Origin: Escherichia phage vB_EcoP_LNA5
DNA: 39,091 nt
Strand: one strand, 5' to 3'
Sequence record: MZ311861.1
Both the position numbers and the translations under genes were made by a program. Below, piece by piece: positions 2,310 to 30,133 of the stretch (position 1 is its first letter; the number at the start of each line of letters is the position of its first letter). The notes beneath the pieces were generated by a model. The model was not told where the DNA came from. It made no database searches and saw only the letters and a list, made by a program, of their open reading frames with translations.

Positions 2310-4480
2310 TAGTGACACTCCTTCCACGTTGGTCCAATCTTACCTTCGGTATCAAGGACACATTTAAAATTATAGAACTCACCCACCTTACGCATAGCAA
2401 GTTGAGCAATCTTGACGACTTCTTCGGCAATCTCCTGAGTACGACACGCAATCTGCAATTCATCATGGACCCATGCCATGTACGCAAAGTCTCCTTCCCA
2501 GCCGTGGACATACCCGGCCTCTTCGAGCATACGTTCAGTCTCGACAATCCAGTGCTTACAGACTACCGCACCATCGCCTTGAAGTAATGCGTTCAGTGCT
2601 GAGTGTGGAGACCGGATGTGGATACGGCGACCATCAAGTCCACGCAACCAACGGCGTTTCCACTTAACGATGTTCTCACCATCTACCCACTTAGAGTCTG
2701 AGATTAACGTATTACTCACAGCTTCCCTGAGGTCCTTGATGGCTGGTGTACCCTCAATGAATTTCTTCATGAGAGCCGAACCTTCCTTCTTACCACCTCC
2801 GACTATCAGTCCAATCTTAGCGGCCCCTGCACCATACAGGAACGCATAGATGAACGTCTTAGCGTTGTTACGGAAAGCATCATGGTCGTGGTTCGACTTA
2901 TCGCGTTTGACGTTAGGTGCTAACCCAGCGTTGACTGCGTTGGCCCAGTGGATGTCACCTTCTACCACAGTCTTCGCATAGGCACCACCATCAAACGGAG
3001 CTGCTCGGTTCCCCAGACAACGAAGCTCAAGACCTGAAGCATCCACACCCACTTGAATCCAAGGGTCTGGCTTACCATCCGTCTTGTTCCAAGCTGCACC
3101 GAAAGCACCACGGCAAATCTCACCATACGGAGCACCGTTAGCAGGGACCTGAGCCATGTTTGGTGAACTATGGGTCGCACGTCCGGTTACTGCACCGCAT
3201 GGGTTGATTGAACCGTGCATACGTCCGTCTGGACCTACAAGTTTCAACCATGCGTTCTTACCTTCAGCCGCCTGACCGATGCGCTTCTGGACTACCAGAT
3301 ACTCACGTACCAGCTCTACGCAAGCCTGAGCCTCTGCGTCTGGTAACTTAACGTGTTCTAACGTCTCGTCATCGACTACAGGTTTCCCGGTTTCAGTGAA
3401 GTCCACAGGCTCCCAGCCACGCTCCATCAAGACTTTCGCTAAGTGGTCTCCGCTTCCCGGATTAAACTCAACGTAAGTGATAGGTGTGAACGGTGCTCCC
3501 TCCATCGTATCTCGCGTATCACGCTCACAAGGTTCAAGACCTAAGCGTTGAGCTTTGTTCTTCGGCTTCTTAAAGATGCCACCGACCTTAGGATACACGA
3601 CTCGTGGATACTTCGGAAGGTCCTTGCCTGTCCGTGGATGCCTGAAGAACTCCTTACCACCCTTCGGTGCATACCAGCTACCGAAAGTCGAACGCAGCTT
3701 GTCCAGCAGCTCTGCACGTTTGACGGTGAGTTCACGATATAAGCCTTCGACCATCTCGGTGTTCATCGGATAGCCGTTACGTTCCATCTTCGCACAGGTC
3801 CACGCAGCATCATGTTCCAGACGCAACGCATAAATCTGGTCGAAAGCGAACTGTTCAGACTGGAAGTAATACTTGTCAGTCAGGAACTTCTTGAACAACG
3901 CCAGTGTGACCACAACGTCTTGAACGTTATAGTCCAGCATCTCCTGAGACGGGAACAACCATTCGTCCCCAGTCTTATATTCGATACCTTCAGCCTTGCA
4001 TTTGGCAACATAATCGTGTTTGTATTCACCTTTCATCTCACCGAGACGATAGCCCCAAGCCTCAAGAGACTGTCGTCCCATCATCTGAGGTGGCAGACGA
4101 CCAGCTTTCACAGCGCCCATGTCTGAGAACTTAATGTTTGGATACATCAAGCGGCCCAGCACCAAGGTATCAATCATCTTGTGTTTCGGGAAGTTAAAAC
4201 GCTTCCCAAAGTACAGACGCTTCAGCTTGTCGATAGCCGGTACGTCATAGTTGATACCGTTGTGGAATACCAGCATACCATCAGGCGATGCGGCAATCTC
4301 TTCCACTTTATGAACATACTCTTTGAAGCCACCGACGATACCGACCATCGGAGCTACCCCATACTTAAGGGTCTCATTCGACTCGGCGTTAATCAGGACC
4401 CCACAGTGAAACTGGGAGACTGTATCAAGGAGACCGTTGGTCTCGATGTCAGAACCCCAGATACTCTTAAGGTCAAACAT
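2309..4480 (-). CDS. DNA polymerase gp5
   Basis: Recalled collinear similarity to T7 DNA polymerase (..DIETNGLL.., ..KTFIYAFLYGAG.., ..YMAWVHDE.., C-terminal ..CH); start set to ATG at 4480 with GGAGGA 8 nt upstream (track start 4516 is GTG). Confidence 0.97.
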   Translation of the reverse strand: MFDLKSIWGSDIETNGLLDTVSQFHCGVLINAESNETLKYGVAPMVGIVGGFKEYVHKVEEIAASPDGMLVFHNGINYDVPAIDKLKRLYFGKRFNFPKHKMIDTLVLGRLMYPNIKFSDMGAVKAGRLPPQMMGRQSLEAWGYRLGEMKGEYKHDYVAKCKAEGIEYKTGDEWLFPSQEMLDYNVQDVVVTLALFKKFLTDKYYFQSEQFAFDQIYALRLEHDAAWTCAKMERNGYPMNTEMVEGLYRELTVKRAELLDKLRSTFGSWYAPKGGKEFFRHPRTGKDLPKYPRVVYPKVGGIFKKPKNKAQRLGLEPCERDTRDTMEGAPFTPITYVEFNPGSGDHLAKVLMERGWEPVDFTETGKPVVDDETLEHVKLPDAEAQACVELVREYLVVQKRIGQAAEGKNAWLKLVGPDGRMHGSINPCGAVTGRATHSSPNMAQVPANGAPYGEICRGAFGAAWNKTDGKPDPWIQVGVDASGLELRCLGNRAAPFDGGAYAKTVVEGDIHWANAVNAGLAPNVKRDKSNHDHDAFRNNAKTFIYAFLYGAGAAKIGLIVGGGKKEGSALMKKFIEGTPAIKDLREAVSNTLISDSKWVDGENIVKWKRRWLRGLDGRRIHIRSPHSALNALLQGDGAVVCKHWIVETERMLEEAGYVHGWEGDFAYMAWVHDELQIACRTQEIAEEVVKIAQLAMRKVGEFYNFKCVLDTEGKIGPTWKECH

Positions 4481-4500
4481 GGTTAATCCTCCGTTTAGTC

Positions 4501-4540
4501 TAATCATAAAGGCCACTCGATGTGAATGACCTTGAGTCTA
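4501..4540 (-). promoter_or_regulatory. RNase III-like processing hairpin, class A
   Basis: Minus-strand TAGACTCAAGGTCA..(11-nt loop)..TGGCCTTTATGATTA; flanks match the recalled T7 R0.5 site; 7-bp stem AAGGUCA/UGGCCUU; three copies in the window. Confidence 0.6.
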
Positions 4541-4543
4541 GAC

Positions 4544-4708
4544 CTATAAGTCTGTACGCAAGAAGTGGTACATGAACTTCCGGTTAGCTTTCTTCCATGC
4601 CTTAGAGTCGAACCTCTGGTCTCCAAGAATGTTGGACAGACAGGTTGCTTCATCACTCCACCATTTGTACATGAACCGATGGTAGCGAGCTTTAAGTTTC
4701 TTTAACAC
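4544..4708 (-). CDS. small basic protein (gene 4.3/4.5 position)
   Basis: GTG start at 4708 preceded by GGAGGA with 8-nt spacing; 54 aa; lies between gp4 and gp5 as the small 4.x genes do in T7. Confidence 0.4.
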   Translation of the reverse strand: MLKKLKARYHRFMYKWWSDEATCLSNILGDQRFDSKAWKKANRKFMYHFLRTDL

Positions 4709-4759
4709 TAATGGTGTCCTCCGTATGGTGACTTCCAATCGCACTCAGGGCATTGACAT

Positions 4760-6463
<1,704 letters not shown>

Positions 6464-6601: not shown

Positions 6602-6620
6602 CCCTACGGTGATAGTTTAG
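6602..6620 (-). promoter_or_regulatory. variant phage promoter (CACCGTAGG core; phi3.8/4 position)
   Basis: ccctacggtgatagtttag: two substitutions at -4/-3 relative to the window consensus; overlaps the lysozyme stop as other copies overlap upstream gene ends. Confidence 0.45.
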
Positions 6621-7075
6621 CCTCGGTCGGAAGTGACCAGTTCATTGGTAGACAGCCAGCGTTGCAAGTCGAAACTTGGACACGCCTTTGGTGCTACGTC
6701 ATGATGTGCTTTGATTTCTGCCTGAGGATACAAGTCCTTCAGGTCAGCCAGCTTGTTGCGCAGGGAGTTCATCTGGGCCGGAGTGAAGTTAGCTTCAAAC
6801 TTGCCCTTAGCGTCAATTCCACCTACAAGGCAGACGCCTACAGACCGTGAGTTCCAGTCCTTAACGTGTGACCCTACGACATTGACCGGGCGTCCCTCTT
6901 CCACAGTGCCATCGCGCTTGATGATAAAGTGGTAGCCTACGTCCAGCCAGCCTTGCTGCTTGTGCCACATACGGATGGTCTCTACCCCGATGTCCATCTC
7001 TGGCTTGGTAGCCGAACAGTGAACGAAGATAGCGTCGGTCCGGGACCGTGGATTGAACTGTACCTTACTTACCAT
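6617..7075 (-). CDS. N-acetylmuramoyl-L-alanine amidase / T7-type lysozyme gp3.5
   Basis: Recalled similarity to T7 lysozyme (..TDAIFVHCSATKP.., ..GWLDVGYHFIIKRDGTVE.., ..HHDVAPKACPSFD.., C-terminal NELVTSDRG). Confidence 0.95.
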   Translation of the reverse strand: MVSKVQFNPRSRTDAIFVHCSATKPEMDIGVETIRMWHKQQGWLDVGYHFIIKRDGTVEEGRPVNVVGSHVKDWNSRSVGVCLVGGIDAKGKFEANFTPAQMNSLRNKLADLKDLYPQAEIKAHHDVAPKACPSFDLQRWLSTNELVTSDRG

Positions 7076-15928: not shown

Positions 15929-16070
15929 CGTGTAAACTGTCGTGTATACGCTTGCGTCTCCTGTAGACCACTTTCAAGAGACGCATAGCCCAATCGTGGT
16001 CTAACTGCCCGGTCTTGACCATAAGCCGGGCGTTAGTGACGTGGTGCTGGCAGAGGCCATAAGTTACCAT
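15921..16070 (-). CDS. gp0.4-like small protein (49 aa)
   Basis: ATG overlaps the Ocr stop (TGATG), as 0.4 does with 0.3 in T7; MVTYGLCQHHVTNARLMVKTGQLDHDWAMRLLKVVYRRRKRIHDSLHAK shares the YGL..W..AM..L pattern with recalled T7 gp0.4. Confidence 0.45.
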   Translation of the reverse strand: MVTYGLCQHHVTNARLMVKTGQLDHDWAMRLLKVVYRRRKRIHDSLHAK

Positions 16071-16573
16071 CACTCGCAGTCCTCAGCCGCAGGGTCGAAC
16101 ACTACGTTATCATTGATGTCTTCCACCTTCAGGTGGCGACCTGCCGCATAGTTAACATTGGCACATGCAGTAGCGACCTCAAGAGCTACAGCTTGCACAA
16201 TTATTGCGCCTGTTTTAGCGTCAACTACCCAATATTCATCCTCTTCGTCTGCCTCTTCATCCTCAAACCAGACTACATCCAAGCTATTAGACACGTCGTT
16301 ATAAAGTGCCTCATAGATGCGAGCTTGTAGGATACGCGTTACGTCCTTGGTTTCAGGTATCATCCCAGAGTCTTCGAACTCGTTGTCTATACCATCAGCA
16401 GCCATCACCGTAAAAATCTCGTGGTAATAGTGTGGAACCTGACCGTCTACGACCTCATGCAGCGCAGCGCTGTAGTCGTCATCTTGAGTCAGGTGGTCGT
16501 ACTGAATACGCTCGATAAATGCCTCAACGGTTGCAGCCAGCAACTCATAGTATGCGTTAGCATTACGTTCCAT
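16070..16573 (-). CDS. ocr: Ocr-like DNA-mimic anti-restriction protein (gene 0.3) with about 50-aa C-terminal extension
   Basis: Residues 1-115 match recalled T7 Ocr (..VPHYY..IF.VMA..GID.EFEDSG..P.TKDV.RILQARIYE..); the ORF then continues past the acidic tail (..DEEADEEDEY) for about 50 more residues; GAGG upstream of ATG. Confidence 0.85.
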   Translation of the reverse strand: MERNANAYYELLAATVEAFIERIQYDHLTQDDDYSAALHEVVDGQVPHYYHEIFTVMAADGIDNEFEDSGMIPETKDVTRILQARIYEALYNDVSNSLDVVWFEDEEADEEDEYWVVDAKTGAIIVQAVALEVATACANVNYAAGRHLKVEDINDNVVFDPAAEDCE

Positions 16574-21284: not shown

Positions 21285-23465
21285 TTATGATAACGACATC
21301 CTTGAATTGGCGAAAGATAAAGCCTGAGCTTGCGTCGTAAACTCAGCGATGAAAAAGTCACTGAATCTGACCGTAGCTCCCGAACCTCCTCCTGTGGAAA
21401 CGTATAGCGCTACAGTGCCAGTGGTAGATGCCTTTCCTACACCGAAAGTGCTAATCCACTCCCCCTGCTTTGTGTAAACACTACCCATGGTAATACCTGA
21501 CGTTATACTAATATCCGCCGAGCCAGATTGTAGGCGTGAGTTAACTCCCCACACGTACCATCTACCGGATGTAATGGTTGTTCTTGTCGATACCATTTCA
21601 TATAAACCGGCTCCGGGGAATGAAAATTCTGTACATGTAGCGGCATGAAGTCCGTCAGATACAGTCGAACCGTTAACGGTGCCGCTGCCAGAAAAATTAT
21701 AGCTACCTGAGTCAAATGTGATAGCCATTAATTTATTCCCTGTCGGCGTATTAAATACTCTCCCTCTTGTTAAGTTGCCCCTCAGAGATAAGTTTGTGGT
21801 AGCTATCGTTGCAGATTGCGATGCGACGGACTCCACAATAACGTCCTTTCCAGAACTGCCGTTTAAATACACGTCATGGGCTACAATGGTGCTTTGTGCA
21901 TCCACGACAATATCCTGATTGCCATCAGCGTTGTCAAAACGGCAACCATAAGTTACTAAGTTGGAGTTGGATAGCTCGATGTTGTTGAGATAAGAATACT
22001 CAGCAAAGAATATCGCTGTGTCTACCAACTTGAGAACTCGCGGTTTTTGCGCCACGCCGTCTACCTGAACAGCCGGTGATGTTGCGATCGCTTCCATCCA
22101 TATATTGGATACCCCGCATGGAGATGTAGGACAGTCGCCCGATTTACTTTTTAAGTATATCCCGCCACCTCCGGAAGCCTCAATAATGGAGTCTTTAAGC
22201 CACCATGCGCCCCCCCCGCCATTATCGACAGTGCCGTCCAGATAGACTGCATAGGTGGAGATGCCATCGAAGTGGATATTGTAGAGGGTATCGGCCCCGC
22301 AATGCATCTCTGAGCCACTAATCGCGTAATACCCCCAATCACACGTAGATATCCCAATATTTCTCCAAGTATTGCCGATGTTCCCGGAAGGCTTCTGAAT
22401 GGCCTTGTTGATGTTGTGGATGTATACATCACTAAAATTATGACGTCCGGAATATTGGTCTGACGGGTCAAAACTAATACCTACGGCCCCGGTTGTCCCG
22501 GAACCATCTATAGCAAAACCACCACTATGGCGGAATTGCCAATGAGGTGTAGCTAAATTAACCTGAACAGTGTTTGTAAAGTCTGCCGGAGTTTTTAGTA
22601 CCGTGGCCCCGCCAACACCTTTTAACTGCGCGTTTCCAATAGTAACTTTTTCAGTATAATTGCCAGGAGACACCAGTAGATCATTTTTTTGCAAAGATGC
22701 ATCTATAGCTGCCTGCAGTGTTGGAAAGTCTTTTGAGTGCAAAACATCATTGTTGTGCTCAAGTAATGTCCTTTCTCCACTGCCTATGTATTTAGCGCCA
22801 TCGCTATCAGACAGGTTTGCTCTAAGTGACGCATCACCAACACTAACCCACGCACTCATCCCAATACCACCAGATGATTCAGGAGTTGAACCAGCGGGAA
22901 CGTTCTTTGGAAGCATACCATCCCAGCGGTAATAATCACCATCCTCTTCCCATAGCAGGACCTCGTTCCATGTTGTAACGTTGAAGCCTTTCTCGAAGGA
23001 GCTACGGGTAATATAGCCAATTTTACCAGCTGCCTTGATACTCGCAGCGATTCGGCGTGCTTCGTCCTCGCTATCCTTAGCGTTGCCAGCAGAGCTACCA
23101 GCAGCATCGGCATATTCCTTCGCTAAGTCAACCGTTTGGTCTCGACCTTCTTCTGCAATATGGATAGCCTGAAGCTCTGAATTGGTAAGGTCACTAGCTG
23201 TCAACACTGAGCCATTCCTGAAGTCTACCACTAAGTCAGTTCCAGTCTGACGGTGAATACGAACGATGTCGAAACCTGATTGGTCAGCCAACATCTCAAT
23301 CATCGTTGGATTAAGGAATCGGTAATCTCGACCAACTTCCAGTACACGGTTCAGGGTAGGGTTAGAGCTATTCACCAGCGTAACAACAACAAACGTTCTG
23401 GCTAGGTAGTCGAACTCTATCCTGTACTGAGTGTTTCCTGAAGGGAATTGTGTAATCGTGGACAT
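21285..23465 (-). CDS. tail fibre / tailspike gp17: T7-like N-terminal adaptor plus divergent beta-helix-like C-terminal domain
   Basis: N-terminal about 150 aa recalled as T7 gp17-like (..FEYLAR.FVVVTL.., ..DGS.L.A.DLN..Q..H.AEE.RD); remainder is Gly/Ser/Thr/Asn-rich with repetitive strands, typical of right-handed beta-helix tailspikes; AAGGAGG upstream; more AT-rich than flanking genes by eye. Confidence 0.85.
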   Translation of the reverse strand: MSTITQFPSGNTQYRIEFDYLARTFVVVTLVNSSNPTLNRVLEVGRDYRFLNPTMIEMLADQSGFDIVRIHRQTGTDLVVDFRNGSVLTASDLTNSELQAIHIAEEGRDQTVDLAKEYADAAGSSAGNAKDSEDEARRIAASIKAAGKIGYITRSSFEKGFNVTTWNEVLLWEEDGDYYRWDGMLPKNVPAGSTPESSGGIGMSAWVSVGDASLRANLSDSDGAKYIGSGERTLLEHNNDVLHSKDFPTLQAAIDASLQKNDLLVSPGNYTEKVTIGNAQLKGVGGATVLKTPADFTNTVQVNLATPHWQFRHSGGFAIDGSGTTGAVGISFDPSDQYSGRHNFSDVYIHNINKAIQKPSGNIGNTWRNIGISTCDWGYYAISGSEMHCGADTLYNIHFDGISTYAVYLDGTVDNGGGGAWWLKDSIIEASGGGGIYLKSKSGDCPTSPCGVSNIWMEAIATSPAVQVDGVAQKPRVLKLVDTAIFFAEYSYLNNIELSNSNLVTYGCRFDNADGNQDIVVDAQSTIVAHDVYLNGSSGKDVIVESVASQSATIATTNLSLRGNLTRGRVFNTPTGNKLMAITFDSGSYNFSGSGTVNGSTVSDGLHAATCTEFSFPGAGLYEMVSTRTTITSGRWYVWGVNSRLQSGSADISITSGITMGSVYTKQGEWISTFGVGKASTTGTVALYVSTGGGSGATVRFSDFFIAEFTTQAQALSFANSRMSLS

Positions 23466-23515: not shown

Positions 23516-23533
23516 CCTATAGTGATAGTTTAG
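23516..23533 (-). promoter_or_regulatory. phage RNAP promoter (phi17 position)
   Basis: cctatagtgatagtttag, overlapping the gp16 stop and about 50 bp upstream of the gene 17 ATG. Confidence 0.85.
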
Positions 23534-26500
23534 TCCTTGATGTGGATGCCCTGCTCCTCAAACGTTCCAAGCAGCAACTTCTGGGTAATCGGGTCATTCG
23601 GTACAAGTTCACGGAACGTGTTATACATCCCGGTCATGTAGTCTCGCTCGTTGACACGGGTATCAGCCTTGAGGTATCCCGCCAAGTTGTAAGCCGTCGC
23701 ACCAACGTTAGCAGCATAGCCGAAAGCCGGGACCTGCTCAAGGAAGTTGCCGACAACATTCATTACCGGACCACTGGAAGCAGCACCAAAGGCGATTGGC
23801 TTCTCCGTCTTCTCGGTAGGTGATCGCGGAAGGATTGACGAGCGGAGCATCTTAGTGTCCTCATATCCAGCGATGCCTCCCAGAATGTTGGCGACCCCAA
23901 GAGGACCACCTAAGTGGGAGCTACGGGACAGCGCCGCATAGCCAATCATTGTTGGGTTAAGGGCTTGCTTCAGATACTCTCGGTCACGACCGTCCTGCAT
24001 AGCGTAAGCCTTTATGTGCGCCTGAGCCATGTAGTACATTCCAGCCAGACCCATAGACATAACCGTTGATAGCGCAGCGTCCATAGCTCGGTTGTTCTTG
24101 GTGGCATTGTAGAAGGTACGCATGGTTCGACCGTTGATAGACTTGATAACGAAGTTCTTAAACTGCAAGACAGTCTTCGCTATCGGACCATAAGCCTTGG
24201 CGTCCATGTTGCTCAGCTTGTGGGGGCGGAGCAGGGTCTCATCAGCGATGGTGTCACCCATACGCCAGAGGTCCATAGCCCTTGGGTCCTGACTGAACGC
24301 CTTCTTATCCTTGATGGTGTACTTCCCGTCTGGACCACGAGTCACTGACTCACGGATTAGGGACTTAATGCCCTTCCACTGCTCGTCAGAGATACCAGCG
24401 GTCTTCAGCCAGCGGTCATCGAACTTACGCTTACTACCAGTCAGGCTATGCTCCACGATGTCAGACAGGAAGCCCTGACGTCCAGCATCTAACAGGTAGT
24501 TGGTCGTACCGTTGAGGACTTTAGTGAACGGAGAGCGTACTGCAAGTTCGCCAGTGTAATACTTGGCAGTCCCCAGAGCTGTAGCTGTACCACGACCGAG
24601 GTCACTGTAAGATCGCAGACGGTCAATGACATCCTGTTTAGACGGACGGATTGAGTCATCCAGTTCCTTACCGAAGATAACATTGTGCAGGTCCTTAATC
24701 TCTGAGGCCCCAACCTTCTTGTTACGGAAGGCTAGGTCACGGAAAATTGGGACTCCATGAAGCATTGCACGAACGTTACCACGAGCCAGCATACCACCAA
24801 TCTCCGTTAAGTTCTGAACACCCATGTAGGCATTCTTAGCGAAGAACGATAGGTCTGTCATTGTGCGCATCACGGTAGCGAAGGCCGCATCATCAGCACC
24901 ATCACGTCGAGCACGACCAGTTAGAATCTTCAAAGTGTCACGTAAGGTAGATACTTCACCTTTCAACTTACCGTCATCCCCAGCCTTGTTCATCAGGGTC
25001 TCAACCAAGTCCTTCATGTCCTTCGTGGTCTTGCCTGTACCAGCCATGATAGCAATATCGCCATTAACTCGACGGTTGTAGGCCGGGACAATCTTGTCCA
25101 TGTCCCACTCACGCAGGTTGTTGACACTGAAGGTCTGACCGTTAGGTAGGACGATTGACATATCGCTATCGAACAGGTTACGAGCCTCAAGGAAGCTGTT
25201 GTTCTCCAGACCCACCAGACCATTGATGTTCTCTTCCATTACGGATGAACGCTCGAACTGCTCGGTGTGAGAGATACCATAAGCCTTATCGTTGGCGTAC
25301 TTATCAACCGCAGCCGCAAGTCCTTCTGGAGTCAACGTAGGGTCAGCCTCTAAGAGTGCCTCGTCCACACGTTTCTTGACTTCAGGTCGAGACGCATAGC
25401 TGGTCAACCATGACTTCTTGATGGCCTCCTGTAGTGCCTCTGGACTCCCAAGCTCCTTGATGTACAGCTCCTTCATCTGGTTGCTATACACATGCGGGAC
25501 GTATGTTCCCTTGAAGCGGCTACCCGGAAAGATAGACTGAGCGTCTGGGCGACCAAACATCGCCGGGTTCTCCATCATCTCACGCTTGGCGTCAAACTGG
25601 TTCTTCAGCAGGTCATAGACTTTCAGTTCTCCCGGAGTCAATTCAGCCTTCAGGTTTCCGCTACCATCTTCGATAGCCATAGACACGCGCTGATAGATGT
25701 CTTGACGGAATGCGCCAGAGTCTCGCCAGAATGCTGTCTGGAAGTACGGGTCCTTTAGTGCCTCAGTAACCGCATCGTCGATGTCATTGTAGAACCGATG
25801 GTCCACAGCACGAAGTCTCTCGAATACGTCTGACGCAGTTGTCCCTATTTTACCTGAGGCCCCAGACTGCATACCAGTCGGTGAACGTACTAAGTCAGCA
25901 GCTACTCCACGAATCTCAGGGTTCTCGGACCGAAGCAGCTTCAGGCCAATCTCAGTCAGCCCACCAAGGTTCACACCAGCAGCGGCACGTTCAGGCTCAA
26001 TCACTTCGTCAAAGACTTTACGTGTCTTAGGGTTCAGAGGATTCTCACCAATCAGGATTGAACCATCTTCCAGTCGTACACTACCCGGCTCGTTCGGAAC
26101 GTCTGCGAACTTAACACCTTGATGACTAAAGGTCTCCTCTCCTTCACGGATTGGCATACGCGACAGGTCCTGACCATCAACATTACGTGCAGTCTCACGG
26201 GCTTCCAGACGTGTGGCTGGTCCGGCGAACTCGTTGGTTGACTTGCCTAAGGCCTTGCCGATAGCGTCCCCGATAGCTGTCATTCCCCCACCGAAGAGAG
26301 CACCGCCCATAATTGCCTCAGCCACATGAGCGTCCCCACCAGCAACTGAGGTTCGAGCAATCTCGGATGCCCCAGCCATAGCACCAGACTGAGCAGCCAC
26401 AGTGAACATCTTGTTGACTAGCTTCCCACCTTTACCTACCTGCCCAGCAATAGGAACGTAGGTCAGAGGGTCCACGCCAGCACCAATCACACCAGCCGCC

Positions 26501-27417
26501 AGTTGAGCACCAGTCCCGGCCTTGGCCTTCTCTTGGTCCAACTTCTGGTTCTCAAGCGCCAAGTTAATCAGCTCAGTCAGGTTCTGAGGGGAACCACCAG
26601 TGATGACTCCGTAATACTGAGGCAGAACCCCAGCGTTACGAATCTGGTCCAGCTCCTCACGAGACCACTTATGGTTATTCCATCGGGTTGGGTTGAACAC
26701 ATCGCCAATGACATCCAGTGAGTCCTCAGTCTGACCAGCTCTGATAGCCACGCCGACCATAGAGTTCTTCACTTCAGCTTCTGTAGCCGCACCGAAACCG
26801 AACCACGTAGAGCGATCCTCTCGTTCCTGCATGGTCTCGCCAGTAGCCTTATAGAACATCTCACCGAACGATTCGTTGGGAGCTTCAGGTGCTTGACCCT
26901 CAATGTTTAGACCAGCAGCGGTCGGAAGGTTCTCACCCAGAGCTACTTTAGGTTTAGCCTTGAGTCCTTCCGTGAGTGCGTCAAATACGTTAGCGCTTAC
27001 TGGTGGAGTCTTTGGGCTAATGCCATTGAGTGCTCGTGCGACTCCCTTCTGATAGACTTCAGGGTCGTACCGTGAGCCTGTCTCATGGTAGCCGATAGCC
27101 TCAGACAGAGAGGCGAGGACATCAGGGTTCGTCAGGTCGATACTTTGTGTTGCCGGGATGCCCGTAGCCGAAGCCACTGACTGAATGTACGCCTGAGTGT
27201 CGTTCTCGTTAGGCGGTGCCCAGCGGGTGATAATCTTCTCGATAGAGTCATAACCTTGGCGACCATAGCTTTGAAGGTTTTTAGCTAAGGCTCGGACCCC
27301 AGATTCAGGACTATCGAAGATAACGAACGCACCATCATCACCTATAGCACCTTCCCATTGGTCTTTGGACTTACGGAGGTTCCCGGGGTTTGAGTTCCTT
27401 ACTCCACGTGTTGCCAT
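23530..27417 (-). CDS. internal virion protein D gp16 with non-T7 N-terminal domain
   Basis: 1295 aa; from about residue 200 onward collinear with recalled T7 gp16 (..TWFGF..A.EAE..NS.., ..GVDPL.YVP..G.., ..RLEARETARN.., ..DLVRSPTGMQSGASGK.., ..AMDLWR.., C-terminal ..NDP.TQ.L.L..); N-terminal about 130 aa (MATRGVRNSNPGNLRKSKDQWEGA..WAPPNENDT..) differ from the recalled T7 transglycosylase domain; GAGGAG upstream. Confidence 0.93.
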   Translation of the reverse strand: MATRGVRNSNPGNLRKSKDQWEGAIGDDGAFVIFDSPESGVRALAKNLQSYGRQGYDSIEKIITRWAPPNENDTQAYIQSVASATGIPATQSIDLTNPDVLASLSEAIGYHETGSRYDPEVYQKGVARALNGISPKTPPVSANVFDALTEGLKAKPKVALGENLPTAAGLNIEGQAPEAPNESFGEMFYKATGETMQEREDRSTWFGFGAATEAEVKNSMVGVAIRAGQTEDSLDVIGDVFNPTRWNNHKWSREELDQIRNAGVLPQYYGVITGGSPQNLTELINLALENQKLDQEKAKAGTGAQLAAGVIGAGVDPLTYVPIAGQVGKGGKLVNKMFTVAAQSGAMAGASEIARTSVAGGDAHVAEAIMGGALFGGGMTAIGDAIGKALGKSTNEFAGPATRLEARETARNVDGQDLSRMPIREGEETFSHQGVKFADVPNEPGSVRLEDGSILIGENPLNPKTRKVFDEVIEPERAAAGVNLGGLTEIGLKLLRSENPEIRGVAADLVRSPTGMQSGASGKIGTTASDVFERLRAVDHRFYNDIDDAVTEALKDPYFQTAFWRDSGAFRQDIYQRVSMAIEDGSGNLKAELTPGELKVYDLLKNQFDAKREMMENPAMFGRPDAQSIFPGSRFKGTYVPHVYSNQMKELYIKELGSPEALQEAIKKSWLTSYASRPEVKKRVDEALLEADPTLTPEGLAAAVDKYANDKAYGISHTEQFERSSVMEENINGLVGLENNSFLEARNLFDSDMSIVLPNGQTFSVNNLREWDMDKIVPAYNRRVNGDIAIMAGTGKTTKDMKDLVETLMNKAGDDGKLKGEVSTLRDTLKILTGRARRDGADDAAFATVMRTMTDLSFFAKNAYMGVQNLTEIGGMLARGNVRAMLHGVPIFRDLAFRNKKVGASEIKDLHNVIFGKELDDSIRPSKQDVIDRLRSYSDLGRGTATALGTAKYYTGELAVRSPFTKVLNGTTNYLLDAGRQGFLSDIVEHSLTGSKRKFDDRWLKTAGISDEQWKGIKSLIRESVTRGPDGKYTIKDKKAFSQDPRAMDLWRMGDTIADETLLRPHKLSNMDAKAYGPIAKTVLQFKNFVIKSINGRTMRTFYNATKNNRAMDAALSTVMSMGLAGMYYMAQAHIKAYAMQDGRDREYLKQALNPTMIGYAALSRSSHLGGPLGVANILGGIAGYEDTKMLRSSILPRSPTEKTEKPIAFGAASSGPVMNVVGNFLEQVPAFGYAANVGATAYNLAGYLKADTRVNERDYMTGMYNTFRELVPNDPITQKLLLGTFEEQGIHIKD

Positions 27418-27848
27418 GTCTTTCTCCTCAAGATATTTCTAATAGAAACCGTACTCACTCCATAGCGTTCCGCCAAGAGTGAAACCTTTAGGCCGCTGGA
27501 CCTTATGTCTCTCACAGTTTCCTCAGTGAGCTTAGACACTCCTATGGAGCATCCTGACGCTTGGCGACCTCTATTCACCTTATCCTTTATGTTATCGGCT
27601 TGGGTGCCGACTTCAAGGTGTCTGGGGTTTATACAGGACGGGTTGTCACACTTGTGGCGGACAACGTACCCATCGGGTATAGGACCGTTAGCAAGCTCGT
27701 AAGCAAGTCTGTGCGCTCCATACTTTACCCTATTAATCATTATCCTTCCATAGCCGGACTTCTCAATGCTTCCGGTGAAGCGGATACAGCCAGACTCTTC
27801 TGTTACTGACAGTTCTGCCAGTCTCTCACTGGCTGTCCCGTTCTTCAT
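27399..27848 (-). CDS. HNH homing-type endonuclease
   Basis: 149-aa ORF with HNH signature ..GYVVRHKCDNPSCINPRHLEVGTQADN.. and helix-turn-helix-like C-terminal region; AAGGAG 6 nt upstream; starts 2 nt after the gp15 stop and overlaps the gp16 start by 19 nt. Confidence 0.85.
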   Translation of the reverse strand: MKNGTASERLAELSVTEESGCIRFTGSIEKSGYGRIMINRVKYGAHRLAYELANGPIPDGYVVRHKCDNPSCINPRHLEVGTQADNIKDKVNRGRQASGCSIGVSKLTEETVRDIRSSGLKVSLLAERYGVSTVSIRNILRRKTWQHVE

Positions 27849-27850
27849 GT

Positions 27851-30133
27851 TTACTCCTTACCTATTAAGGTGTTTGCGATACCTTCCAGTGAGACATCAG
27901 AGTACAGGCCTCCACGATTCTGGATGTTGCCCTCGCGTTCAGCTCGACGCTTATCGCCAGCCGCTTTAGTCTCGACAATGCGAGCGCGGGTGTTGGCTTT
28001 ACGTTCTGCCTCAGCGTATGCTTTATCCTCAGCCTGTTTCTGCTGTTCACGGTACAGTTTGCCTACCACGTCCTTATCGTACTTGATACGAATAGTCCCC
28101 GTAGCGTCTTGGAGGAAGATAGAGCCGTTCTGTTCAACGACGGACAACTGAGAGTTCACTACCCAAGGGTTGGCCTTAATGAGCTGCTGACGAGCGGTGT
28201 CGATAATGTCTCTACCCACCTGCCACGACTCTGGGTTATCCCCGACCATAAGCTGGTGTTTGGAAACCATGCCGATGGACTTACCGTCAGAACCTTCAGA
28301 CTGGAACGTTACGGTGTTCTCATTCAGCCAGCGTTGAGTCTGCTGCGTTGCAGCGTCAGCGTTACCTGTACGATAGTACCATGAGTCCCAGACCTTACGA
28401 GCACTTGAGTCTAGAGACGTAGGAAGACGCGAAAGGTCCTTATTCCGAGAGTCGTTCTTCAACTCCTGCCACGCCTTGTCTGACTCCATGCGCATCTCAC
28501 GGCTTTGACTTGCAGCTTGCTTATCAGCTTCAATCATCGTCTGAGGGTCCAGGCCCATCTTGTCCATCTGGTCGAACGTAGAGAACAACTGAGCTTGGTC
28601 AGGATACAGAGCAGCGAAACTTGAAGGGTCCTGAGTGTAGGCACGACGAAGAGACTCGAAGCGTTTCATCTTGTCTGGGTCGTACTGTCCACGGATGACA
28701 GCAGCTTGCCACTCACCAGCAGCGTCCTGAGTAAGCGTCTGGAAGGCATTACGGAACGGACCGTTGTTAGTGTCAGCTCTTAACAATGCCACCTTCTGGG
28801 CGTCCTTAGCAGCCTCAGGGATGTCCATCTGGTCAATCTGCTGTAGCTTAGAAGACGCATAGTTGTTCATGTCTGAACGCTTGAACTCTCCTGTGGATTC
28901 AGAGACCGGAAGGTCCTCATAGTTGGTGGACACGTTGTCTCCAGCCAGACGTCGCTGATAAACTTGGTCAATGACCAGTTGCTTGTTCTGGGTCTGGATT
29001 AACTTCGTGTTCTCCTTCGCCTGTTCAGCAGACTTACGCTTGACCGCTTCCAGTAAGCTGGCTTCGGCATTAATAAGCATCTGACGCTGAGGCGTAAGTT
29101 CTTCACCCGGCTGAAGCAGGTTGTTCTGCTCCTTGAGTTTCTGAATCTGGGCAAGACCGATGGTTGGGTCGTCCTGAAGAATCGCAGACTGAACTCCTAA
29201 CGCTAAGTCTTCCTGATACTTAGCAACCAGCTTGTACTCAGTTCCTTGTGCCTCAACAATAGCAGCGTTGAAGACATCAGGTCCTACAATCTCTTCGACT
29301 GTAGCGTCCACGCCGTTAAGGGTGATTCTCTCGCCTCGTACTTGCTGTAGGAAGTTTGAGCCGCCGGACTTCTGGATTGCGTCACGGACCGTCTGGGTAA
29401 TGACCTCCCGTGCTCTCTGGTCCGAAGGTATAGCAGCAGTCGTCAATCCATCCCGAAGGTAGGCCATGAATGTCTTGCCAGACTCAGGTGAACGCATCAG
29501 GTCGCCATCGTTCAGGAATGAGTTCATCTCAATACGAGTGTTCAACATTGCTGTCTCTTCAGACTGCTTGCTGAAATACTTATTGAAAGACCCATAGATA
29601 GCGATGTTTCTGTCCGTGATGTTATCGTTGAAGCCACGCTGGAAGAACTCGTCGGTAGGGTTAATACCTGCCTCTTCAGCATAGGACTTAGCGGCATCCT
29701 GAAGTCGCTGGTGGCGATACTCTTCCATGTCCTGACGTGTACGGAACTCACCGTTCTGAATCTTAACGTTAATCTCGTCGTCTACAGCAAAGGCAGCATT
29801 ACGACCAGTCTTGACTCGAAGTGCTTCCATAGCGTAAGGGTCATCCTGATACAGCAATGTACCATTCTGGATAGCCTCACGTCTTTGCTGAGGTGTCAGC
29901 TTACGGATAATCTCGTTAGACCTATCGTCGGCCCGTGTCTTTTCATCGTCCTTGAACTGCTTGTACAATCCTGTCCCAGACTCAACGAAGTTGGTTAACG
30001 CACGAGCCAGACCGGAGTCACCAGTCGGAGCCTGAACGCTGGCTGCTTGATAGTTGACGGCGATAGTTTTACCCGGCGCTCTGCCGCGACCCATAGTCCG
30101 ATTAGCCAGAGCTGATTCAATATTACTAGCCAT
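27851..30133 (-). CDS. internal virion protein C gp15
   Basis: Recalled collinear similarity to T7 gp15 (..ERSNEIIRKLTP.QRREA..NGTLLYQDDPYAMEALRVKTGRNAA.., ..EEYRH.RLQ.., ..NPW..N.QL..). Confidence 0.95.
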   Translation of the reverse strand: MASNIESALANRTMGRGRAPGKTIAVNYQAASVQAPTGDSGLARALTNFVESGTGLYKQFKDDEKTRADDRSNEIIRKLTPQQRREAIQNGTLLYQDDPYAMEALRVKTGRNAAFAVDDEINVKIQNGEFRTRQDMEEYRHQRLQDAAKSYAEEAGINPTDEFFQRGFNDNITDRNIAIYGSFNKYFSKQSEETAMLNTRIEMNSFLNDGDLMRSPESGKTFMAYLRDGLTTAAIPSDQRAREVITQTVRDAIQKSGGSNFLQQVRGERITLNGVDATVEEIVGPDVFNAAIVEAQGTEYKLVAKYQEDLALGVQSAILQDDPTIGLAQIQKLKEQNNLLQPGEELTPQRQMLINAEASLLEAVKRKSAEQAKENTKLIQTQNKQLVIDQVYQRRLAGDNVSTNYEDLPVSESTGEFKRSDMNNYASSKLQQIDQMDIPEAAKDAQKVALLRADTNNGPFRNAFQTLTQDAAGEWQAAVIRGQYDPDKMKRFESLRRAYTQDPSSFAALYPDQAQLFSTFDQMDKMGLDPQTMIEADKQAASQSREMRMESDKAWQELKNDSRNKDLSRLPTSLDSSARKVWDSWYYRTGNADAATQQTQRWLNENTVTFQSEGSDGKSIGMVSKHQLMVGDNPESWQVGRDIIDTARQQLIKANPWVVNSQLSVVEQNGSIFLQDATGTIRIKYDKDVVGKLYREQQKQAEDKAYAEAERKANTRARIVETKAAGDKRRAEREGNIQNRGGLYSDVSLEGIANTLIGKE

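Follow-up and report, generated by a model that had tools for sequence, protein, structure and literature searches.

The N-terminal head of the internal virion protein gp16 of Escherichia phage vB_EcoP_LNA5 (sequence record MZ311861.1) is not the lytic transglycosylase module of phage T7. Residues 1 to about 124 of this protein very probably form a peptidoglycan glycosidase domain of the Enc34/PHA02564 type, which would replace the SLT head of T7 gp16 in the same role. The window, i.e. the whole stretch of 39,091 nucleotides (nt) that was analysed, is a complete, circularly permuted T7-like genome, in which the minus strand carries all genes. Within it, the gp16 open reading frame (ORF) occupies positions 23530..27417 (-), starts with ATG and encodes 1295 amino acids (aa), and the predicted muralytic domain corresponds to 27046..27417 (-). 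An earlier note, made from the DNA letters, had drawn attention to 27030..27417 (codons 1-129 of this ORF), and the peptide strings quoted there, MATRGVRNSNPGNLRKS... and IITRWAPPNENDT, are present exactly in the gp16 ORF.

Judged by both the homology of its body and the gene order, the ORF is a T7-type gp16. In a BLASTP comparison with T7 (NC_001604), residues 125-1295 aligned with residues 152-1315 of T7 gp16 (53% identity over 1171 residues, E=0), which bears out the claim of the earlier note that the C-terminal ~1100 residues of the two proteins are collinear. Identity to T7 was low from residue 125 and became strong from near residue 185, and upstream of residue 125 BLASTP gave no alignment to T7 gp16. 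A phmmer search of the PDB placed the boundary with the T7 gp16 chain 7eyb_I at the same residue (~125). The T7-like body (residues ~200-1295; 23530..26817 (-), stop codon included; internal virion protein D, part of the DNA ejectosome) matched PDB chains 7eyb_I and 6yt5_G (E=0) as well as PHROG 342, and it is preceded by a linker (residues ~125-200, 26818..27045 (-)), predicted to be flexible, which contains the junction between the module and the body and shows weak similarity to the T7 gp16 linker.

When the two N-termini alone were compared, BLASTP found no significant similarity (E=0.38). As a positive control, residues 1-160 of T7 gp16 matched the Pfam SLT profile (PF01464) at 2.6e-31, while this profile matched neither residues 1-150 nor the full gp16 of LNA5 at E<=1, and hhalign gave a probability of 0.1% for an alignment of 28 homologues of the LNA5 domain against T7 residues 1-160. 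The order of the SLT motifs (a catalytic Glu (E-S) near the N-terminus, followed by GLMQ and AYNxG) is not that of the LNA5 domain, in which the conserved Glu is residue 112 and lies after the Trp/Tyr helices. The non-T7 nature of the first ~125 residues of gp16, as had been noticed from the sequence, is real and not a chance effect.

Searches with the domain consistently led to one enzyme family. Among all PDB sequences, the sole non-gp16 match found with phmmer was 7Q47, the catalytic domain of the Hafnia phage Enc34 endolysin (E=2e-12, residues 3-123). PHROG 873, annotated as 'endolysin', matched the domain at E=5e-52, and tblastn matches included endolysins and 'lysis protein A' genes of Chi-like phages. 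Residues 1-150 were modelled with AlphaFold2 from an alignment of 28 short stand-alone homologues (these were used for the alignment, not for statements on distribution), and the model was confident (predicted local distance difference test (pLDDT) score 91.3, predicted template modelling score 0.82), with helices predicted at residues 37-53, 59-66, 74-85, 98-113 and 119-130, and a low-confidence linker at residues 131-150 (pLDDT ~57). The only significant match of this model in a Foldseek search of the PDB was again 7Q47 (E=6.5e-9, template modelling score 0.78), so that the structure prediction proposed in the earlier note returned an Enc34-like fold. The modelled domain shares the all-helical architecture of 7Q47 (alpha1-alpha6, without a beta-lobe). 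No family was assigned to the domain or to the full gp16 in scans of Pfam-A and NCBIfam; the sole sub-threshold match, HCNGP (E=0.038), was dismissed as noise. By sequence similarity and predicted fold, the gp16 N-terminal domain belongs to the Enc34/PHA02564 family.

The residues proposed to form the Enc34 enzyme's active site are conserved in LNA5. The domain contains the motifs R7-N8-x-N10-P11-G12-N13, W66-A-P-P, E71-N-D-T, Y77 and H111-E112-T-G. Cernooka et al. 2022 (PMC8943055) propose Glu131, Tyr95 and Trp79 as the Enc34 active site, and in the phmmer/HMMER alignment these residues are aligned with E112 (HETG; codon at 27082..27084 (-)), Y77 and W66 (RWAPP), the HETGS of LNA5 being placed on HENGS of Enc34 (residue 132 of the PDB chain is Glu131 in the numbering of the paper). 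Across the 28 stand-alone homologues, N8, N10, P11, N13, R15, F34, G40, A43, A67, P68, E71, N72, T74 and Y77 are invariant, and E112, among others, is at least 90% conserved. E112, Y77 and W66 are all kept in six Kayfunavirus alleles, namely those of the window, K1F, 6925, HC12, CR44b and HC13.

Members of this family are known to degrade peptidoglycan. The Enc34 protein ORF39dC lyses outer-membrane-permeabilised cells of E. coli, P. aeruginosa and H. alvei, and its fold is described as a circularly permuted lysozyme alpha-lobe, a very distant relative of GH73 and GH23 with the Glu in the same spatial position; the permutation relative to these two families consists in the Glu-bearing helix following, and not preceding, the other core helices (PMC8943055). 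The second characterized enzyme, M4Lys of Salmonella phage BSPM4, degraded purified peptidoglycan and removed N-acetylglucosamine from mutanolysin-generated muropeptides, as found by high-performance liquid chromatography-mass spectrometry, and these products suggest N-acetylglucosaminidase rather than lytic-transglycosylase chemistry (PMC7143992). Structural protein P5 of the corticovirus PM2 and its homologues in Vinavirales have also been recognized as Enc34-like lysins, with a W/Y/E triad highlighted (Yutin et al. 2022, preprint), and a domain of a Stenotrophomonas type VI secretion system (T6SS) effector resembles Enc34 as well.

Taken with what is known of T7, these features suggest how the domain may work. 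The predicted all-helical domain, a circularly permuted lysozyme alpha-lobe, would use E112 of the HETG motif as the general-acid Glu, in a groove lined by Y77 and W66, and the flexible linker would connect it to the T7-like body. By analogy with T7 gp16, the protein would be stored in the capsid core until its ejection at infection, and the N-terminal enzyme would open the murein sacculus locally, which would let the gp14/15/16 ejectosome extend across the periplasm. Work of the Molineux laboratory reportedly placed T7 gp16 in the internal core, from which it is ejected together with gp14 and gp15, its muralytic head opening the sacculus for the ejectosome; this activity is said to matter mainly when the murein is more cross-linked, e.g. 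at low temperature or in stationary phase. In line with the presence of the protein in virions, the gp16 record of CR44b carries the note 'matches in mass spectrometry analysis'. The bond chemistry probably changed from that of a lyase to that of a hydrolase, possibly an N-acetylglucosaminidase, with the biological role presumably left unchanged. A separate gp3.5-type amidase endolysin gene (6617..7075; Pfam Amidase_2) is present in the genome, and therefore the gp16 domain is not the lysis enzyme of the phage.

Comparison of gene 16 within the genus revealed that the head has a history of its own. Relative to K1F and 6925, codons 1-124 of the LNA5 gene differ at 21-26% of nucleotides and codons 125-1000 at ~1-6%, the divergence falling abruptly to 1-3% at codon ~125, i.e. 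at the boundary between the domain and the linker. Nonsynonymous and synonymous divergence (dN and dS) were estimated for the six alleles by the Nei-Gojobori method. In the domain dN/dS was 0.07-0.17, and this low ratio indicates strong purifying selection, consistent with a working enzyme. Pairwise dS was 0.2-1.7 in the domain versus 0.08-0.38 in the body; the domain alleles are thus much older than the surrounding gene, so that the domain is a recombination mosaic. Positive selection as the cause of the divergence was rejected, since dN/dS does not exceed 0.17 and it is dS that is elevated. The mosaic structure extends below the scale of the domain: in codons 1-62 the window groups with HC12, CR44b and HC13, and in codons 63-124 with HC13 only. 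Across Kayfunavirus, the gp16 N-terminal domain is a diversity hot-spot.

Immediately upstream of gene 16 lies a gene for an HNH homing endonuclease (27399..27848 (-), 149 aa; Pfam HNH_3, 7e-17; PADLOC 'homing endonuclease', 1.7e-11), an insertion that separates gene 15 from gene 16. The gene shares the 19 nt at its 3' end with the start of gp16, and the ribosome-binding site of gp16 (a GAGGAG Shine-Dalgarno sequence ~6 nt upstream of the ATG) lies inside the HNH gene. HC12 and CR44b carry the gene at the same site (annotated there as 7.7C), while it is absent from K1F, 6925 and HC13, in which gene 16 begins 4-5 nt after gene 15. A strict linkage of the domain allele of the window to the HNH gene was rejected, since the most similar allele is that of HC13, which lacks this gene. 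The divergent tract runs from ~28133, i.e. through the last ~280 nt of gene 15, to ~27037, spans ~1.1 kb and is centred on the HNH gene; it is 75-90% identical to the relatives, versus 96-100% for the flanking DNA. Its gene 15 portion is 80-82% identical to HC12, CR44b, HC13 and K1F, which are 96-98% identical among themselves. The tract has the appearance of a patch acquired by co-conversion or recombination from a donor that is not among the sampled phages.

Several points weigh against the identification of the head as an active substitute for the T7 enzyme. The T7 transglycosylase is reported (Moak and Molineux 2000) to be dispensable under optimal growth conditions, and the contribution of the LNA5 domain to infection may be conditional likewise. 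Assays of peptidoglycan degradation in the family are limited to Enc34 ORF39dC and M4LysdTMD, the copies borne by gp16 being assigned by homology. Even in Enc34 the catalytic role of the Glu was deduced from superposition, without mutagenesis, as far as the available part of the article goes (PMC8943055). The bond specificity of the family comes from one study, in which the substrate of M4Lys was predigested with mutanolysin and an endopeptidase activity was also hinted at (PMC7143992). Residue 9 is S in the window and N in most homologues, although this column is not invariant. Finally, the direction of the exchange, most likely from the SLT to the Enc34 type, is read by parsimony from record counts only. 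An alternative is that the domain has an Enc34-type fold without catalysis, so that as the head of gp16 it would have no more than a structural or peptidoglycan-binding function; if T7 tolerates the loss of its transglycosylase in standard conditions, selection for catalysis could be weak. Against this, the family-invariant residues (N8, N10, P11, N13, R15, E71, N72, T74, Y77 and E112) are all kept, and the low dN/dS despite a dS of up to 1.7 points to long-term constraint on the whole domain, which makes a non-catalytic head improbable. Less credible still, and in our judgement barely worth entertaining, is that the T7 module itself is present, as a collinear SLT/GH23 lytic transglycosylase that has diverged too far to be recognized. 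Its position is that of the T7 SLT domain, its size is similar, many Kayfunavirus gp16 proteins are annotated in GenBank as 'peptidoglycan lytic exotransglycosylase', and the fold of the Enc34 family has a deep common ancestry with those of GH23 and GH73 (PMC8943055), but this reading was rejected on the BLASTP, Pfam and hhalign comparisons with the T7 head given above. A divergent transglycosylase with the catalytic Glu conserved, which the earlier note had named as the result that would overturn it, was found neither as a collinear alignment nor by family membership, and is echoed only in that deep ancestry.

It may also be asked whether the swap was a neutral exchange of equivalents or an adaptation, be it to the cell-wall chemistry of a particular host or to a lytic-transglycosylase inhibitor made by the host. 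The mechanism of lytic transglycosylases requires a free C6-OH of N-acetylmuramic acid (MurNAc), and an exchange of the SLT for the Enc34-type head could have freed the ejectosome from this need and from periplasmic inhibitors of transglycosylases and lysozymes; host cell-wall defences would then drive the allelic diversity through ongoing selection or cassette shuffling, and the HNH gene would carry alleles from phage to phage. We regard this scenario as unlikely, and the same holds for adaptation in general. The probable difference in chemistry (hydrolytic and glucosaminidase-like versus lyase, judged from M4Lys, PMC7143992) and the unusually deep divergence of the domain alleles speak for it. 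However, mosaic recombination around the HNH insertion site explains that divergence equally well, the selection analysis gave no sign of positive selection, and the host ranges of phages with the two head types overlap heavily within Enterobacteriaceae. While the suggestion of the earlier note that peptidoglycan-hydrolase chemistry differs is supported as far as the homology to the Enc34/PHA02564 family and the M4Lys data go, its other suggestion, host cell-wall adaptation, finds no backing here: both heads occur in phages of the same enterobacteria (E. coli, Salmonella, Citrobacter, Klebsiella and Enterobacter), and the simpler reading of these shared hosts is that one equivalent module displaced another.

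The distribution of the two heads bears on the direction of this displacement. Using tblastn, the domain was detected in 814 of 50,697 phage records. About 220 of the 814, at identities of at least 60%, represent gp16 of K1F, CR44b and other K1F-like phages of Escherichia, Salmonella, Citrobacter, Shigella, Klebsiella and Enterobacter, and the remaining matches include epsilon15-like podoviruses, D3112/MP22-like Pseudomonas phages, Chi-like and Seuratvirus-like siphoviruses, microviruses, and PM2-like and autolykivirus-like phages of Vibrio and Pseudoalteromonas. The T7-type SLT head was found in 1139 phage records, from several Studiervirinae genera (T7-like, Klebsiella Przondovirus, BA14/Berlin-like, Yersinia, Dickeya and Pseudomonas gh-1-like phages). 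This much wider distribution of the SLT head (1139 versus ~220 records) favours it as the ancestral state. The Enc34-type head, which sits at the SLT position, most likely displaced the SLT domain in a K1F-like ancestor, and this would be a case of non-orthologous domain displacement.

Beyond gp16, the family is large and its members are variously embedded. According to PHROG profiles, families named 'head protein', 'tape measure', 'tail injection' and 'endolysin' contain the domain. When 1.84 billion cluster representatives (clustered at 50% identity) were searched with a profile, 19,740 matched at E<=1e-3, of which 4,136 reached E<=1e-30, and the carriers range from stand-alone proteins of ~140-230 aa up to proteins of 2462 aa. 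Large as it is, the family is not represented by a model in the copies of Pfam-A and NCBIfam that were searched, and a precomputed Pfam domain was present in none of 34 metagenomic homologues.

Several known systems resemble the LNA5 protein in part. T7 gp16 (internal virion protein D; PDB 7EYB, 7K5C and 6YT5) has the same architecture, i.e. an N-terminal muralytic module of ~130-150 aa, a linker and an ejectosome body, and its gene likewise follows those of gp14 and gp15, but its module is an SLT/GH23 lytic transglycosylase, to which that of LNA5 is unrelated in sequence and helix order. The Enc34 ORF39 endolysin (7Q47; 'V virion protein', PHA02564, in CDD) differs in context: in LNA5 the domain forms the N-terminal end of a protein of 1295 aa that belongs to the capsid core and the ejectosome, and its action would take place at entry, from outside. 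M4Lys carries the same PHA02564 domain and is the sole family member with an analysis of muropeptide products; unlike gp16, it is a holin-independent endolysin with a transmembrane domain, and its identity to the LNA5 domain is at best ~36% (tblastn, judged from matches in Chi-like phages). The closest relative of the domain outside Studiervirinae in the phage collection (48% identity, E=3e-39) is in gp15 of Salmonella phage epsilon15, an 842-aa virion 'head protein' with relatives in PHROG 992. There, too, the domain is embedded in a large internal virion protein of a podovirus, but it lies within the chain (residues 247-378) and not at the N-terminus, and the protein that carries it is unrelated to gp16. 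The record of this gene (record coordinates 3263-5791) cites an HHpred match to soluble lytic transglycosylase; no SLT domain was found in the protein with Pfam. PM2 P5 is a homologous Enc34-like lysin used as a virion structural protein (tblastn matches are annotated as 'structural protein P5'), although it is small and stand-alone and the viruses are tailless and membrane-containing. GH73 N-acetylglucosaminidases (the Ecd09610 domain of C. difficile, 8YXK; TM0633 of T. maritima; FlgJ) and the T6SS effector Tge2 (4KT3) are also among the closest known systems.

The enzyme family is already known, as are its fold, its activity on murein and its use in virion proteins, the gp16 fusion is a genus-wide feature of Kayfunavirus that has been in the sequence databases since K1F, and the swap seen in LNA5 is an ordinary module exchange. 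In a literature search whose coverage did not extend to the genome paper of K1F (Scholl and Merril 2005), no article was found in which the gp16 of K1F-like phages is connected with the Enc34 family. 'Gp29' of PDB entry 9VVP (chain 9vvp_L) is near-identical to LNA5 gp16 over residues 1-1295; the literature search retrieved no paper for this entry. Kayfunavirus gp16 proteins are widely labelled 'peptidoglycan lytic exotransglycosylase (EC 4.2.2.n1)' or 'peptidoglycan transglycosylase' (OL362275, OL362276, ON637250, OQ860980, OK210074 and others). This label appears to have been transferred from T7 although the SLT domain is absent, and it is probably wrong. The main practical value of the present analysis is the correction of this annotation: the head is of a different family and probably has a different bond chemistry. 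Moreover, virion-associated lysins are mined as antibacterials, and the domain offers a compact module of ~125 aa with relatives active on Gram-negative murein and a natural set of alleles at hand. It is also a clean example of modular evolution, in which non-orthologous wall-cutting heads are joined at a flexible linker to one ejectosome scaffold, and the junction of head and linker is still a recombination breakpoint within the genus. These points are modest and do not overturn current understanding.

As regards the genomic context, DNA similarity places LNA5 in Kayfunavirus (the K1F-like genus of Studiervirinae; ~250 related records were found), the best DNA match being Escherichia phage HC12 (94.5% over the gp16 region). 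The genes of the window are arranged in the order portal, scaffold, capsid, gp11, gp12, gp13, gp14, gp15, HNH gene, gp16, tail spike, and lysis and terminase genes. The order 12-13-14-15-(HNH)-16-17 is conserved and differs from that of K1F only by the inserted HNH gene, and Pfam matches to Phage_T7_Gp13 and Phage_T7_tail support the T7-like succession gp13-gp14-gp15-gp16-gp17. The ejectosome partner gp15 (internal virion protein C, 27851..30133 (-), 760 aa) is collinear with gene 15 of K1F, CR44b and HC12.

Downstream of gene 16, the gene 17 product (21285..23465 (-), 726 aa) combines a T7 tail-fibre N-terminal adaptor with a Tail_spike_N (TSP1/Gp66) domain, and this tailspike is not of the K1F endosialidase type, so that another surface receptor is implied. 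The gene at 16070..16573 (-) encodes an Ocr-like DNA-mimic anti-restriction protein (Pfam ocr, 5e-28), as expected for an early gene in a T7-like phage. The record MT350292.1, 'Enterococcus phage EFA-1', for which Enterococcus faecalis is given as the host, is 91% identical to the window over gene 16 and the HNH gene, and this host assignment looks doubtful.

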